DNA of 64,000 bases from an uncultured Bacteroidales bacterium. GTDB taxonomy: Bacteria; Bacteroidota; Bacteroidia; Bacteroidales; UBA1402. This document shows, piece by piece, positions 18,859-53,418 of the stretch (position 1 is its first letter; every line of letters starts with the position of its first letter). The notes under the pieces were generated by a model. The model saw nothing but the letters and a program-made list of their open reading frames with translations, was not told the DNA's origin and did no database searches. The translations under genes and the position numbers were made by a program. The stretch spans positions 14,486 to 78,485 of the forward strand of contig CAZAUQ010000002.1 of the NCBI GenBank assembly GCA_964488495.1. The letters run 5' to 3'.

Positions 18859-18900
18859 TAAAAAAAATCATGGAAATTTTATTAATAGAACGAAATGCTA

Positions 18901-18908
18901 TACTTTTG
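18901..18908 (+). promoter_or_regulatory. -7 box (TACTTTTG) for the TPR-ribH operon
   Basis: This perfect match lies 34 nt upstream of ATG 18943 and downstream of the track start at 18895. Confidence 0.55.
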
Positions 18909-18942
18909 CACACCAAATTTGTCTTATACAATTATAAAAGAA

Positions 18943-19638
18943 ATGGCTAATAAAAATGCATCCCCAAAAGCCGGTCAAAAAGAAGAACTGCAAAATGTAG
19001 GCGAAGTATTGACCCGTTCGGAACAATTCATAGAAAACAACCAGAAAAACCTTTTGGTAGCCTTGTTGGTTGTCGTAGTAGTGGTAAGTGGCATCATCCT
19101 TTTCAGGAACAGTTTTATGGGGCCTAAAGAAAAAGAAGCCCAGGAAATGATGTTCCGCGGAGAGCAGTACTTTGCAGCTGATTCATTTGAACTGGCTCTT
19201 TATGGCGATGATTATGAATTTATAGGTTTTGAAGGCATCATCGAAAACTACGGCATCACCAAAACCGCCAAACTGGCCTCTGCTTATGCCGGTTTGTGCT
19301 ACAAACACCTGGGAGATTACGAAAAAGCCATCGACAGACTCAGTAAACTCAATGCGGTTGATATTATGGTTTCGCCAGCATTGACCGGAGCAATCGGTGA
19401 TTGTTATGTGGAACTCGATCAATTACAAAAAGCTTTACCCTATTTCGAAAGAGCAGGACAGGCCGACAACAATTTGCTGGCTCCCGTTTATTTAATGAAA
19501 GCGGGCCGTGTTTACGAAGCATTGGGAAAATACGACAAAGCACGCGAAGCATACGAAAAGATCAAAATGAATTTTCCTCTTTCACAAGAAGGCCTGAATA
19601 TTGACAGGTATATCGAAAGAACGAGATTACAGAAATAA
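18943..19638 (+). CDS. membrane-anchored tetratricopeptide-repeat protein
   Basis: It begins MANKNASPK..., followed by the TM segment LLVALLVVVVVVSGIILF. The C-terminal half is TPR-like (AYAGLCYKHLGDYEKAI, AGRVYEALGKYDKAREAYEKI). Its stop overlaps the ribH ATG (TAATG). Confidence 0.55.
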   Translation: MANKNASPKAGQKEELQNVGEVLTRSEQFIENNQKNLLVALLVVVVVVSGIILFRNSFMGPKEKEAQEMMFRGEQYFAADSFELALYGDDYEFIGFEGIIENYGITKTAKLASAYAGLCYKHLGDYEKAIDRLSKLNAVDIMVSPALTGAIGDCYVELDQLQKALPYFERAGQADNNLLAPVYLMKAGRVYEALGKYDKAREAYEKIKMNFPLSQEGLNIDRYIERTRLQK

Positions 19639-20123
19639 TGAGTACCAAAAATCTTTCTGAATACAACCCTGATACTCTGCCCGATGCATCCGATATGAGA
19701 ATTGGCATTGTGGTATCCGAATGGAATTACGATGTCACGGTCAAGTTGCTGGAAGGAGCCCGTCAGTTTTTACTGAATAACAAAGTAGATCCCGAAAACA
19801 TTCTGGTTGCCTGGGTTCCGGGCAGTTTTGAATTGATTTACGGGGCTGCCAGAATGGAAGCTGTTGCCTCTGTGGATGCCGTCATTGCTTTGGGTAGCGT
19901 AATTCGCGGAGAAACACCTCATTTCGAGTATGTTTGTTCAGGAGTGACACAGGGCATCGCCCAATTAAATGCCAAAGGAAGCATTCCCTTTATTTTCGGT
20001 TTGCTTACTACCAACGATATACAGCAGGCTTTAAACCGGGCTGGCGGTATACACGGGAACAAAGGAGTGGAAGCAGCCAAAACTGCTGTACAAATGATTT
20101 ACTTCAATCGACAACTGAAATAA
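19638..20123 (+). CDS. ribH: 6,7-dimethyl-8-ribityllumazine synthase
   Basis: The 161-aa product contains RIGIVVSEWN, VPGSFELIY and VIRGETPHFEYV, which are typical RibH blocks. Confidence 0.92.
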   Translation: MSTKNLSEYNPDTLPDASDMRIGIVVSEWNYDVTVKLLEGARQFLLNNKVDPENILVAWVPGSFELIYGAARMEAVASVDAVIALGSVIRGETPHFEYVCSGVTQGIAQLNAKGSIPFIFGLLTTNDIQQALNRAGGIHGNKGVEAAKTAVQMIYFNRQLK

Positions 20124-20195
20124 TTCAGAATAAATAATCTTGCAGTAAAATCCCGGTACATTTCTTCAAGCCTCGGCTACCGGATAGTTGACCGA

Positions 20196-22049
20196 TTATT
20201 CCAACTCAAGGTTTAATTTTTGTTTCAGGTTTTGCAGGTTCGGATTCTTTTTGATCATTTCTTCCAACTGATCCTGAGAGCTTAAGGGCTTTTTTAACTC
20301 ATTCTCTTCACTGATTCGCAACTGCATATGCACTTTGCCGTTTTGTAAATCCTCTTGCAAGCGGTTTTCTATTTCTCCCCGAATGGCTTCGAGTCGTTGA
20401 GCGGTCAATGGATGGAATACCACCACTTCAAAATCACTTTTGTTCAGCAAACGAGGTTTGCAGGCCTGCATGGAGTTCAATAAATAAGGATCTTCCCTCA
20501 GTGTGCCGGCAAAACGAAGCCAGGCCTTAATCAGGTCCTTTTCGTCAAAATGTTCTTCAGCCTTTACGACTTCTTTTTTGGCTGCCTCCTCGTTTTGAAT
20601 TTCTTCTGCTTGCATTTTACGACGGCGTATGGAAGTAGTCAGGCCTGGCAAGGCTCTTTCTTTAGCTGCCCCGGTGGTGGAATTTTGATTATTAGGGGCG
20701 GGTTCAGGCTGTGCCGATTGCTGATACTTTACAGCCTCTTTGTCGGGCTCCCTGCTGCTGGATTGAGGAATTGTTTGGAGTGCCGGATTGGCCTGAGAGG
20801 TGGCATTTGTCTGTTTGGCCGGCATTGATTGAGTTGTTGGCACAGACAGAAGGGGAGTAGTTGTCTGAGTTTTCGCTTCAACCCTGGGAAGGGGATTGTT
20901 TTCGGCTTTAGCCGCTGCGAGTTTATCGGTTTTCAGGTCGTCCTGTTTTTTTTTTGCTTCGCCAGTCAGGCAAAGTTGAATCAGGCAAAGTTCCACCAAC
21001 AGGCGCTTGTTTTTGCTTTGATTATACTGCAGGCTGCATTCATTACTCAGTTTAAGAGCTCTGAACAGAAAGCCCATACTGCATTCTTCAGCTTGTTTTT
21101 TGTATTTGACACGCACACTCTCAGCTTGCTCCAGCAGACTTATGCTTCGGGAATCTTTTGAAACCATCAGATCTCTGAAATGAGAAGCCAGGCCATTGAT
21201 GAAATGCATGCCTTCAAAGCCCAGGTTCAAAATCTGATCAAACAACAGCAATGCCTCTGTAGTGTTTTCGTTCAAAAAAGCCTCAACCAGCCTGAAATAA
21301 AAATCGTAATCCAGTATATTCAGATTATCGATGACATGCTGATATGTAATTTTACCTTCACCGTAACTGCAAACCTGGTCAAAAATTGAGAGGGCATCGC
21401 GCATGCCACCGTCTGATTTCAGGGCAATAGCGTTCAGGGCTTCAGGTACTGTTTCGATTCCTTCTGAGTCGGCAACATACTGCAGATAGGCGCTGATGTC
21501 GTTGATGCTGATGCGGTGAAAATCGTAAATTTGACAACGGGAGAGTATAGTAGGTATAATTTTATGCTTTTCGGTGGTTGCCAGAATAAAAACAGCATGA
21601 GCGGGGGGCTCTTCCAGAGTTTTGAGGAAGGCGTTAAACGCACTGGAAGAGAGCATGTGTACTTCGTCGATAATGTAAACCTTGTATTTACCCAGTTGTG
21701 GCGGAATGCGCACTTGTTCGGTCAGGGAACGGATGTCGTCCACCGAATTATTGGAGGCGGCATCCAGTTCGTGAATGTTATATGAACGCTGCTCGTTGAA
21801 AGAAACGCAGGATTCGCATTTATTGCAGGCTTCTCCCTGGTTGTTGGGATGAAAGCAATTGATGGCCTTTGCAAAAATTCTGGCGCAGGTGGTTTTACCA
21901 ACTCCTCTGGGGCCGCAAAACAAATAGGCATGAGCCAGTTGCTTGTTTTTGATGGCATTTTGGAGAGTTGTAGTAAGGGCGCTCTGTCCGACGACCGATT
22001 TAAAGTTGTCCGGACGGTATTTTCGTGCTGAAACCAAATAATTTTCCAT
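20196..22049 (-). CDS. dnaX: DNA polymerase III subunit gamma/tau
   Basis: It has Walker A GPRGVGKTTCARIFAK, the zinc module CNKCESC, Walker B IIDEVHMLS and sensor SRCQ, followed by a Q/P/T-rich linker and a C-terminal domain. The start MENYLVSARKYRP at 22049 is supported by the promoter box at 22077. Confidence 0.93.
   Translation of the reverse strand: MENYLVSARKYRPDNFKSVVGQSALTTTLQNAIKNKQLAHAYLFCGPRGVGKTTCARIFAKAINCFHPNNQGEACNKCESCVSFNEQRSYNIHELDAASNNSVDDIRSLTEQVRIPPQLGKYKVYIIDEVHMLSSSAFNAFLKTLEEPPAHAVFILATTEKHKIIPTILSRCQIYDFHRISINDISAYLQYVADSEGIETVPEALNAIALKSDGGMRDALSIFDQVCSYGEGKITYQHVIDNLNILDYDFYFRLVEAFLNENTTEALLLFDQILNLGFEGMHFINGLASHFRDLMVSKDSRSISLLEQAESVRVKYKKQAEECSMGFLFRALKLSNECSLQYNQSKNKRLLVELCLIQLCLTGEAKKKQDDLKTDKLAAAKAENNPLPRVEAKTQTTTPLLSVPTTQSMPAKQTNATSQANPALQTIPQSSSREPDKEAVKYQQSAQPEPAPNNQNSTTGAAKERALPGLTTSIRRRKMQAEEIQNEEAAKKEVVKAEEHFDEKDLIKAWLRFAGTLREDPYLLNSMQACKPRLLNKSDFEVVVFHPLTAQRLEAIRGEIENRLQEDLQNGKVHMQLRISEENELKKPLSSQDQLEEMIKKNPNLQNLKQKLNLELE
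20946..20955 (-). other. A10 homopolymer (candidate slippery / recoding site) inside dnaX
   Basis: Plus-strand T10 at 20946..20955 corresponds to coding-strand GCA AAA AAA AAA CAG. See the finding on this site. Confidence 0.9.
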
Positions 22050-22076
22050 ACTAATTTTGCTACTGGCTAAGTTGGA

Positions 22077-22084
22077 CAAAGATA
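22077..22084 (-). promoter_or_regulatory. -7 box (TATCTTTG) for dnaX
   Basis: Plus-strand caaagata lies 27 nt upstream of the ATG at 22049. It overlaps the longer track start at 22079, which is therefore rejected. Confidence 0.55.
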
Positions 22085-22161
22085 CATAAGGCTTTTTTAA
22101 AAAGGAAGTTCCTGCAGCGATTTTTCATTCCGAATATTCTTGGGCATCCGGATAATTCTAG

Positions 22162-22169
22162 TAATTTTG
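22162..22169 (+). promoter_or_regulatory. -7 box (TAATTTTG) for the ftsB-like operon
   Basis: This perfect match lies 20 nt upstream of ATG 22190. Confidence 0.55.
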
Positions 22170-22189
22170 TCCAGTTCATAAATCCACTT

Positions 22190-22489
22190 ATGCGCAAGAT
22201 TTTAGCGTTTTACGAAAAGATTAAGCCGTATTTGAACAAATACCTGATCGTGTTGATTTTGTTCGGTGTACTGATTGTGTTCATTGATGAGCACAACCTG
22301 ATCAGGCGCATGCAATACGACCGCAAAATCAGAGATTTGCGCAAAGAAATACGACGCTACGAAAAAGAAAGAGATCATGCCCTGGAACAGCTTAAGGATT
22401 TAAGAACCGGCAGCGAAGAACTGGAGAAAATTGCCCGTGAGCGCTACCTGATGAAAAAAGACAACGAAGAAATTTTTTTACTGGAATAA
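22190..22489 (+). CDS. septum formation initiator (FtsB/DivIC-like) protein
   Basis: The 99-aa product has one N-terminal TM segment (LIVLILFGVLIVFI) and a coiled coil. It ends IARERYLMKKDNEEIF, as in FtsB/DivIC family members. Confidence 0.6.
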   Translation: MRKILAFYEKIKPYLNKYLIVLILFGVLIVFIDEHNLIRRMQYDRKIRDLRKEIRRYEKERDHALEQLKDLRTGSEELEKIARERYLMKKDNEEIFLLE

Positions 22490-22490
22490 C

Positions 22491-22835
22491 ATGTCCAAAA
22501 ATTTACTAAAAGATGGATTATTTATCGTGGCCGCGGTGCTGATCCTGATTTCCTCTGTTTTAGTAATGGAGCAATACGAATGGGCCAGATATAGTTTTGC
22601 AGCCGGAGTGGTCCTGTACATTGCCCATCGAGCCATCACAGCCTACAGAGGCAATGATTTCAGGCTTAAGCGACTTAACAGAATGTTTGCTTTCAATGCC
22701 ATCGTTTTTATGCTCGCTGTCTATCTGATGTTCAAAGACAGCAAATCCTGGGTGGCTATCTTGTTGATAGTGGCTGTGGTTGAATTGTATGTGGCATTTC
22801 GTTCAGCCTCCTACAAGAAAGAAAACGAGCAATAA
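22491..22835 (+). CDS. hypothetical small integral membrane protein
   Basis: The 114-aa product has four hydrophobic segments. Its start is 1 nt after the ftsB-like stop. I recognise no motif. Confidence 0.5.
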   Translation: MSKNLLKDGLFIVAAVLILISSVLVMEQYEWARYSFAAGVVLYIAHRAITAYRGNDFRLKRLNRMFAFNAIVFMLAVYLMFKDSKSWVAILLIVAVVELYVAFRSASYKKENEQ

Positions 22836-22836
22836 T

Positions 22837-23574
22837 ATGTCGTCCTCCTCTTTCCGTTTCAAGCAATTTGAGGTTTTTCACGACCGTTGTGCCATGAAAG
22901 TGGGTATGGACGGAGTGCTCCTGGGAGCTTGGGCAAAACCTGCTGCAGAACTTATTGAAGCATCCGGCTTAAGGATACTGGATGTAGGCAGCGGTTCCGG
23001 TTTGATTGCGTTGATGATGGCTCAGCGTTTCCCTTCATCTTCGGTTTTTGGTATAGAAAAAGACATTCAGGCGGCATTGCAGGCTCAGGAAAATGTCGCC
23101 CACAGTCCCTGGTCTGAAAGAATACAAATTATTCAGGGATCTTTCCCCGAAAGCATCAACGGCAATTTTGTTCCCGAAGAGCAACAATTCGACCTGATTG
23201 TTTCCAATCCTCCCTATTACAGGAATGGCCTGAAAGGCAGCATATATACGCGCAATCTGGCCCGCCATGGTGACAAATTAAGCTTTGAACAATTGACGAT
23301 GAGCGCTGCCGGCCTCCTGAGCGAGCAAGGGATCTTTGCACTTATCGTACCTGCCGAAGCCGCAGAATTAATGGAAGAACTCTGCTGGGGGCAGAGACTT
23401 TACCTGACAAACATCTGTCAAATTTCACATCGTCAGGGTAAAGAGCCAAAGCGTTGCCTTATGGCTTTTGCAAAATCCAGAGCGGATATTTGTCGTCAGG
23501 AATTGCAAATCGAAGACAGAAAAGGTGAATATACTCCTGAGTTCAAGGCGTTAACCTCCGATTTTTATCTATAA
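22837..23574 (+). CDS. tRNA (adenine-N6)-methyltransferase, YfiC/TrmN6-like SAM-dependent methyltransferase
   Basis: I use the start MSSSSFRFKQFEVFHDRCAMKVGMDGVLLGAWA at 22837; the track start at 22780 overlaps the previous gene. It has SAM motif I, ILDVGSGSGLIAL, and the N6-MTase motif IVSNPPYY. Confidence 0.75.
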   Translation: MSSSSFRFKQFEVFHDRCAMKVGMDGVLLGAWAKPAAELIEASGLRILDVGSGSGLIALMMAQRFPSSSVFGIEKDIQAALQAQENVAHSPWSERIQIIQGSFPESINGNFVPEEQQFDLIVSNPPYYRNGLKGSIYTRNLARHGDKLSFEQLTMSAAGLLSEQGIFALIVPAEAAELMEELCWGQRLYLTNICQISHRQGKEPKRCLMAFAKSRADICRQELQIEDRKGEYTPEFKALTSDFYL

Positions 23575-46701: not shown

Positions 46702-46755
46702 AAAAACCGGGGAGATTTTTTTTTGACATTACTTAAATTCTTGAAAGCAAATGTC

Positions 46756-53396: not shown

Positions 53397-53418
53397 AGGA
53401 GCGTTTTTTTTTAGTTTG

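Follow-up and report, generated by a model that had tools for sequence, protein, structure and literature searches.

An A10 run at the end of domain III of a Bacteroidales dnaX gene: a conserved candidate site for making a gamma-type DnaX by transcriptional slippage

The dnaX locus and its A10 run

The stretch of DNA considered here, which I call the 'window', comprises 64,000 nucleotides from an uncultured Bacteroidales bacterium (contig CAZAUQ010000002.1), and the nearest named matches of this organism are themselves labelled uncultured Bacteroidales bacterium. On its minus strand the window carries dnaX, which encodes the tau subunit of DNA polymerase III, and within dnaX there is an uninterrupted run of ten A's which is the subject of this text. 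The identity of the gene follows from an NCBIfam PRK14971 equivalog match of 822 bits (cutoff 685), from a match to TIGR02397 (dnaX_nterm), the model for which ends at residue 370, from the Pfam domains DNA_pol3_delta2, DNAX_ATPase_lid, and DNA_pol3_gamma3 (the latter being domain III), and from similarity to Escherichia coli gamma/tau structures (E = 5e-65). The family models begin at Met11 of the open reading frame (ORF) as listed, and for that reason the ATG at 22049 is the likely start, which would give a tau of 617 aa. The features relevant to what follows, in the order in which they are transcribed, are these:

20196..22079, minus strand: dnaX ORF, DNA polymerase III tau, 627 codons; listed start TTG 22079, likely start ATG 22049
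20957..20975, minus strand: putative upstream nascent-RNA hairpin, CUUUGCC-UGACU-GGCGAAG, 7 bp, approximately -8.8 kcal/mol, separated from the 5' end of the run by one base
20946..20955, minus strand: slippage-prone A10 run (template T10), read GC-A AAA AAA AAA-C, i.e., A K K K
20934..20945, minus strand: downstream hairpin, CAGG-ACGA-CCTG, 4 bp, directly adjoining the run; probably outside the signal
20933..20935, minus strand: +1 frame stop, TGA, approximately 3-4 codons past the run; reached if one A is lost or two are gained
20923..20925, minus strand: -1 frame stop, TAA, 7 codons past the run; reached by one extra A, by two fewer A's, or by a -1 ribosomal shift

Read on the minus strand from 20957 to 20919, the sequence is GAA GCA AAA AAA AAA CAG GAC GAC CTG AAA ACC GAT AAA, with the three lysines being codons 366-368 of the 617-aa tau as counted from ATG 22049. 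The run thereby directly follows domain III, that is, the end of the dnaX_nterm model. The first-pass annotation of this DNA, which was made from the letters alone, had placed an A10 run in dnaX at this same boundary, some 365 codons after the likely start, and with a TAA in the -1 frame and a TGA in the +1 frame shortly beyond it. Sequence, coordinates, and profile matches all agree with that description, and both stops read from the minus strand as claimed. The zero frame, by contrast with the other two, remains open for 249 further codons past the run, and tau is encoded as a single ORF.

The T10 seen on the plus strand at 20946..20955 is the longest homopolymer of the 64-kb window. Simple arithmetic from window base composition nevertheless leads to an expectation of approximately 0.4 A10 or T10 runs per 64 kb, and the A10 run alone therefore is not significant. 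It is instead the placement and the conservation of the dnaX run that are far beyond chance. Two other homopolymers of at least 9 exist in the window, a T9 at 46716..46724 and a T9 at 53404..53412, and as both of these lie between ORFs, the dnaX run is the sole homopolymer of that length found inside a long window ORF.

Conservation of the run, the stops, and an abutting hairpin

Six distinct close relatives, identified through exact-protein look-ups, share the gene neighbourhood and possess DnaX proteins that are 82-86% identical at the amino-acid level. Among them, 22-30% of the codons for identical residues differ synonymously, and GCA AAA AAA AAA C is unchanged in 6/6. The two out-of-frame stops are equally kept, the -1 TAA despite changes of GAT AAA to GAT AAT or GAT AAG, and the +1 TGA despite a change of CTG AAA to TTG AAA. 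This pattern points to nucleotide-level purifying selection on both the run and the out-of-frame stops. A check that had been proposed in advance, i.e., whether relatives keep a run that is free of AAG along with the stops in both alternative frames, thus has come out clearly positive, in all six of these relatives as well as in a survey of the phylum.

For that survey, loci were picked in two scans using N-terminal peptide patterns, a selection that is blind to the site itself. The sample consisted of 80 loci from species-level genomes and 80 from metagenomes, the latter being distant and taken from among the matches listed, with a tblastn anchor set at the end of domain III in each locus. 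This provided 160 evaluable Bacteroidota dnaX loci, that is, 80 from genomes, 74 from metagenomes, plus the window and five distinct close relatives. A run of A9 to A12 is present in the linker, just past domain III, in 92 of the 160 (40/80 genome loci, 46/74 metagenome loci, and the window along with the five close relatives). Most of these runs are A10 (n=66), with the rest being A9 (n=13), A11 (n=12), or A12 (n=1). The length of the longest linker A-run in fact is bimodally distributed over the 160 loci, at 7 or less in 68, at least 9 in 92, and 8 in none, versus a control segment of the same genes within which A-runs never exceed 7. Carriers include the genera Paludibacter, Parabacteroides, Dysgonomonas, Proteiniphilum, Marinifilum, Labilibaculum, Pedobacter, Mucilaginibacter, Sphingobacterium, and Chitinophaga, and the GC content of carrier loci spans 25% to 60%. 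Parabacteroides distasonis, for instance, has an A9, and A10 is found in Dysgonomonas and Pedobacter.

Across these loci the run is located anywhere from 40 to 113 nt from the domain III anchor, and it is embedded in a linker which cannot be aligned. It is therefore the run itself that is conserved rather than a protein motif in some fixed context. Codon choice is consistent with this, as Lys-Lys-Lys triplets within the linker are all-AAA in 60/83 cases, and AAAAAAAAG in 18 more, versus all-AAA in only 6/77 elsewhere in the same loci. The run, furthermore, usually takes in one A of an adjoining codon that does not encode Lys, which is what makes it 10 long. Only 29 other A or T runs of at least 9 are found across 647 kb.

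What lies just beyond the run is equally non-random. For the 76 carrier loci with a single ORF, the next stop comes after a mean of 2.7 codons (-1 frame) or 4.0 codons (+1 frame), versus 14.0 and 16.9 codons, respectively, for control in-frame positions of the same genes, and means as short as those observed were reached by 0/20000 Monte-Carlo draws in either frame. The closing of both frames fits with slippage in both directions, which predicts closure of both.

At 15 further loci the gene is instead split at the run, meaning that the zero frame encounters a stop 0-6 codons later, and a frame that is open for more than 200 codons goes on in either the -1 frame (13/15) or the +1 frame (2/15). 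These loci are as follows:

Split, tau in the -1 frame: L054, L070, L076, L102, L107, L108, L135, L142, L144, L146, L147, L148, L151
Split, tau in the +1 frame: L045, L139; tau here requires that one A be lost or two gained

Homology to the tau C-terminus confirms the -1 continuation in Sunxiuqinia, in Mariniphaga, and in one Prolixibacteraceae genome. A Paludibacter species is also among the split loci, and three Prolixibacteraceae genomes have TTA AAA AAA AAA TAG CTG AC, the split state, in common. Because tau is essential, split loci would make it solely by way of an efficient change of frame at the run, and they thereby serve as natural evidence for such a change in this phylum. That split genes exist in both directions, moreover, speaks for an event during transcription and not on the ribosome, this being the criterion used by Antonov et al. 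(PMC3711429). As a matter of annotation, split dnaX genes likely are reported as truncated genes or pseudogenes by gene callers and annotation pipelines.

Immediately 5' of the window run is the 7-bp hairpin that is listed above, a feature which the first-pass annotation had missed. It is fully paired in the six close relatives, with one of its pairs being C-G in four of them, U-A in one, and U-G in one. Hairpins so placed recur in the survey, where canonical pairing was scanned for against matched control positions. A hairpin of -7 kcal/mol or stronger, no more than 2 nt from the run, is seen in 39% of A-run loci versus 3% of positions drawn at random from these genes. Upon repeating the scan following collapse of similar upstream sequences into 60 clusters, the enrichment persists, at 22/60 clusters versus 2.9% for controls (binomial p = 6e-19; Monte-Carlo 0/20000). 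These abutting hairpins are unrelated in sequence but alike in position, as in CUCUAUCA-CUUU-UGAUGGAG from Flavobacterium-like loci or UGGGUGUCCC-GGAC-GGGGCGCCCG from a locus of 58% GC. Given this positioning and enrichment, the upstream hairpin probably serves to tune slippage efficiency. In the window there is, in addition, a 10-mer, CTTTGCCTGA, which occurs twice, 5 nt apart (20966..20990, minus strand), and which encodes the repeated L-C-L of ELCLIQLCLTG. By pairing with GGCGAAG, the first copy of CTTTGCCTGA could take the place of the hairpin's 5' arm.

On the other side of the run, the first-pass annotation had pointed to the small hairpin CAGG-ACGA-CCTG as beginning directly after the A's. 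The hairpin is indeed there, but no role for it is evident. Among the close relatives 83% of cells are paired, its top pair is broken in 3/6, and the fold of the 60 downstream nucleotides is weak (z = -1.5). Lacking conservation and stable folding, the downstream hairpin was ruled out as a stimulator.

Probable slippage by RNA polymerase and its alternatives

Taken as a whole, these patterns make it highly probable that the window's run is a conserved functional site which gives rise to a gamma-type DnaX. That the A10 is, more particularly, a programmed transcriptional-slippage (i.e., realignment) site of the kind known from Thermus thermophilus dnaX would seem reasonably likely. As RNA polymerase passes along the T10 template, the whole of its 9-10 bp RNA:DNA hybrid would consist of rA:dT, such that the transcript could re-pair out of register, with this realignment probably promoted by the 7-bp nascent-RNA hairpin found one base behind the run. 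The outcome would be a population of mRNAs that is mixed in terms of A-run length. Transcripts with A10, A13, or A7 would supply full-length tau, of 617 aa. Transcripts with A11 or A8 would end instead at the TAA, following ...KKKTGRPENR (predicted as 375 or 374 aa, respectively, from the ATG), while those with A9 or A12 would end at the TGA, following ...KKNRTT or ...KKKNRTT (predicted as 371 or 372 aa). The frame-specific C-termini to be expected thus are ...EAKKKTGRPENR and ...EAKKNRTT.

Both short forms would be gamma-like DnaX proteins, of approximately 371-375 aa (41-42 kDa), possessing domains I-III alone, that is, the clamp-loader core. Their predicted length matches that of the crystallised constructs of the E. 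coli gamma core, which form an active clamp loader and are 368-373 aa in length. Such short forms would do without domains IV-V, through which E. coli tau contacts both the helicase DnaB and the alpha subunit of the polymerase. None of the four predicted gamma sequences has an exact match in the protein collection, though this is a search of low power as only three contigs of the species are found there and as the collection reflects DNA. From the sequence I infer slippage at the RNA polymerase step, stimulation by the hairpin, and both the accumulation and the functioning of gamma.

One indication as to the identity of the slipping machinery is the minimum length of the run. A length of 9 matches both the 9-10 bp RNA:DNA hybrid and the run-length threshold of 9 that has been reported for slippage by bacterial RNA polymerases (PMC5009743, PMC1088944), which favours RNA polymerase as a ribosomal heptamer needs only 7.

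There are a number of considerations which, from a different perspective, weigh against RNA polymerase slippage or weaken the support for it. RNA polymerase from E. coli reportedly slips more readily on sense-strand T-runs than on A-runs (PMC6260861), and no experimental demonstration in any Bacteroidota was found in the literature. The A10 also holds in-phase A_AAA_AAA heptamers, from which -1 ribosomal frameshifting may make some contribution. Homopolymer length errors are possible in those split genes that come from metagenome bins. The upstream hairpin, as seen in the six relatives, is weak evidence alone, since its arms are coding-constrained and only one pair covaries, and a shuffle control was not significant at a depth of six relatives. 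Approximately 60% of A-run loci, in addition, have no strong abutting hairpin, and the hairpin therefore is not obligatory. Lastly, survey loci share ancestry, and because of this the Monte-Carlo counts overstate independence, though the flanks of these loci differ widely.

Of the alternatives, the one to take most seriously is -1 programmed ribosomal frameshifting, much as in E. coli dnaX, in which gamma would be made from faithfully transcribed mRNA by ribosomes shifting on A_AAA_AAA. Two such heptamers are in phase within the run, the -1 stop is both near and conserved, and in some relatives the run ends in a G so as to supply an in-phase A_AAA_AAG (e.g., L014). A net -1 change also is what 13/15 of the split genes need. 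The remaining two split genes require a +1 change, however, and the +1 frame as well is closed far sooner than expected. A heptamer, furthermore, would do, yet lengths of 7-8 are hardly seen at all, and the runs are as a rule 9-12 long. A_AAA_AAA, too, is reportedly much less shift-prone than A_AAA_AAG (PMC5009743), and the conserved hairpin is upstream, where RNA polymerase can be affected, which is not the position of a ribosomal stimulator.

The absence of the E. coli stimulators is a further difficulty, and here the first-pass annotation, which had equated the architecture of the site with that of E. coli dnaX, has not stood. What is shared is the gene, the making of tau along with a gamma that is without domains IV-V, an A-rich site made up of Lys codons, and a nearby -1 stop. 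The window, in contrast to E. coli, has A_AAA_AAA and then CAG, with no A_AAA_AAG heptamer. As to a Shine-Dalgarno-like stimulator, which in E. coli is some 10 nt upstream, there is no GGAG, GAGG, or AGGA in the upstream CCUGACUGGCGAAGC. Nor is there a stable and conserved downstream stem-loop, with solely the 4-bp hairpin adjoining the run, and a search of Rfam 15 at E <=10 returned three chance-level matches to unrelated families and no frameshift element. On the basis of these heptamer, stimulator, stem-loop, and Rfam results, an E. coli-type frameshift cassette was ruled out. The E. coli gamma is 431 aa in length, and reckoning from that figure the window site is approximately 60 codons earlier on the domain map. 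Ribosomal frameshifting as the source of gamma here is, overall, unlikely.

Quite improbable is a DNA-level explanation, under which the run would be a hypermutable tract, with slippage during replication toggling between tau-encoding and truncated alleles and with no recoding by RNA polymerase or ribosome. Long homopolymers are known to be mutable (PMC1088944), and the finding of A9, A10, A11, and A12 in related lineages, in both single- and split-ORF genes, implies that run length does change over evolution. With tau essential, however, a split allele that has become fixed would be lethal if not recoded, yet there are entire families in which the gene has become fixed as split, as the three Prolixibacteraceae genomes attest. 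Exactly A10, moreover, is what is found in six relatives from the window's clade, and a truncated allele of the window DnaX is not on record, though this last comparison is of low power.

The idea that there is no recoding at all, with the lysines forming a basic linker motif and AAA codons reflecting A-rich usage, is strongly disfavoured, and indeed scarcely credible, since even though AAA is the commoner Lys codon in survey loci (63%), and a single A10 in 64 kb would be no surprise given base composition alone, all-AAA triplets would then be expected at approximately 25% but are seen at 8% elsewhere and at 72% in the linker (with most of the others being AAAAAAAAG inside an A10 run), the A of a flanking non-Lys codon usually extends the run to 10, the run persists at 60% GC, both out-of-frame stops are conserved, and split-gene relatives are left unexplained.

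Returning to transcriptional slippage, the closest counterpart to the window site is dnaX of Thermus thermophilus, for which the accounts given within PMC1088944 and PMC5009743 (of Larsen et al. 2000 and Yurieva et al. 1997) describe programmed transcriptional slippage on an A9, tau in one ORF, and stops in both of the other frames. The two have in common the gene, a single tau ORF, a sense A-run of at least 9, and near stops in both non-zero frames, such that in the window, as in Thermus, transcripts that are off the templated length by a non-multiple of 3 would result in a truncated gamma. The first-pass annotation had proposed a candidate gamma-producing recoding site of this very type, and this assignment is supported: a run of at least 9, a single tau ORF, and both other frames closed within a few codons. 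Differences are that the window run is A10 rather than A9, that it is found at the end of domain III (codon 366/617) and so would give a minimal gamma, and that a conserved hairpin abuts it 5'. The Thermus case, furthermore, has been proven experimentally, and the window site is a candidate.

Within Bacteroidota there is a precedent as well. Antonov et al. 2013 (PMC3711429, Fig. S3) employed GeneTack to predict transcriptional realignment at an A10 in two-ORF dnaX genes, with their set including Flavobacterium johnsoniae, F. psychrophilum, Cytophaga hutchinsonii, Capnocytophaga ochracea, Chlorobi, and Verrucomicrobia. Whether such recoding had been shown experimentally in this phylum was left open in the first-pass annotation, and the answer is a partial one: it had been predicted, but experimental work was not found in the literature. 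The phylum is the same, the A10 is the same and at the same place, and the mechanism that is inferred is the same. With the two-ORF genes, however, a stop closes the zero frame immediately past the run, which makes gamma the default product and leaves tau dependent on slippage, the reverse of the window. Frameshift finders of the GeneTack type miss the single-ORF form because their method sees split genes alone, and that form accounts for the majority of A-run carriers (76/92). Baranov et al. 2005 noted that slippage of the single-ORF type is hard to predict (PMC1088944).

No paper describing single-ORF, A-run dnaX in Bacteroidota was found in the literature, nor was a description there of an upstream hairpin for dnaX, with the primary Thermus paper (Larsen et al. 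2000) lying outside the coverage of that search. New here thus would be the single-ORF Bacteroidota form and, possibly, the upstream hairpin; the class of mechanism and the prediction for split genes in the phylum are known.

A precedent for the hairpin is the Roseiflexus IS630 element (Penno et al. 2015, as summarised in PMC5009743), in which a stem-loop enables transcriptional slippage. There, too, a nascent-RNA hairpin is immediately 5' of the slippage motif, in the geometry of an intrinsic terminator but without termination. The Roseiflexus motif, in contrast, is heteropolymeric (U5C5), strictly requires its hairpin, and is found in another class of gene; the window's A10 would be expected to slip alone, with its hairpin tuning only. 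A third path to both DnaX forms is that of Caulobacter crescentus, where gamma results from partial proteolysis of tau by ClpXP, as outlined in PMC5009743 and in bioRxiv 10.1101/2022.11.10.516041. Acting after translation, this route depends on no signal in the nucleic acid, and its existence shows that gamma has been repeatedly selected. Here a route of the ClpXP type possibly is relevant only to those Bacteroides and Prevotella lineages which are without an A-run.

The need for a short, gamma DnaX outside of E. coli is still debated, and reviews have described dnaX as being, in most bacteria, without any retained signature of frameshifting (PMC3290774). Contrary to those reviews, in this one major phylum a dedicated signal in the nucleotide sequence has been kept at the end of domain III by over half of the members sampled, one which persists over 25-60% GC and through repeated switches between single and split ORFs. 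This persistence is strong comparative evidence that the making of both DnaX forms is selected. In practical terms, annotation pipelines should not call split Bacteroidota dnaX genes pseudogenes, gamma-type products are to be expected in Bacteroidota proteomes, and the upstream hairpin would supply a mutable handle on how the efficiency of slippage is set.

A GC hairpin at the same boundary, and other observations

In Bacteroidaceae and Prevotellaceae, dnaX is without the A-run, and what is present at the same boundary is a GC hairpin, GGGC-N3/4-GCCC, which is conserved at the nucleotide level. In Bacteroides thetaiotaomicron the site, of the Bacteroides/Prevotella type, reads GGGCGUAGCCC. The loci which possess this hairpin are the following:

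GC hairpin loci, first group: L003, L005, L009, L013, L015, L018, L023, L028, L029, L031, L034-L037, L043, L047
GC hairpin loci, second group: L049, L051, L055, L057, L060, L061, L068, L069, L072, L074, L077, L082-L091, L096

The GC hairpin is found approximately 60-72 nt past the domain III anchor and directly 5' of Lys-rich codons which align with the KKK of sister families. Its Gly codon is GGG in 33/34 distinct sequences, and its third codon is either NGC or else NNG and then always CCC (6/6 vs 4/26; Fisher p = 2e-4). The residues that are so encoded vary, i.e., S, G, C, R, K, M, or Q, and the codon pattern therefore is one that preserves the stem but not the peptide. Out-of-frame stops nearby are closer than under the null, which may follow simply from conserved Pro-Lys and Leu-Lys-Pro codons. 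No slippery motif was identified at the GC hairpin. The hairpin may be an alternative gamma-producing signal or instead a pausing signal.

It is tempting to join these observations with those on the A-run, and to view the phylum as sharing a cassette, consisting of a terminator-like nascent-RNA hairpin that directly abuts an A9-A12 run, with the hairpin setting the efficiency of slippage and hence the ratio of tau to gamma. Single and split ORFs would then be interchangeable by way of one-base changes in the run, and in Bacteroidaceae and Prevotellaceae the A-run would have been replaced by the stronger GC hairpin. This broader view is offered only tentatively and is, on present evidence, rather doubtful. 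If it were true, then the GC hairpin would be perhaps a new, homopolymer-independent way to gamma, or something that makes RNA polymerase or the ribosome pause there.

One of the GC hairpin loci, L029 (CAVKGN010000028.1), is labelled 'uncultured Oscillospiraceae bacterium' but carries a Prevotella-type dnaX, and probably is a mis-binned or mislabelled contig. A recurring peptide motif also is seen in the linker, a few residues past the run or the GC hairpin, as (I/L)-K-P-(I/L)-F in Bacteroides and Prevotella and as L-I-E-P-I in Parabacteroides (e.g., L003, L013, L016, L019, L035). Tau would contain the motif and gamma would lack it, and the motif presumably resembles those of the beta-clamp-binding type.

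As to the surroundings of dnaX, the order of genes (approximately 18895..23574 in the window; L161-L167) is kept in the close relatives and is a matter of ordinary synteny. In the window and those relatives, one flank possesses genes for a DivIC-like septum protein, a small membrane ORF, and a methyltransferase, and the other possesses the lumazine synthase gene, ribH, along with genes for a TPR protein and an SMC/RecN-like ATPase.

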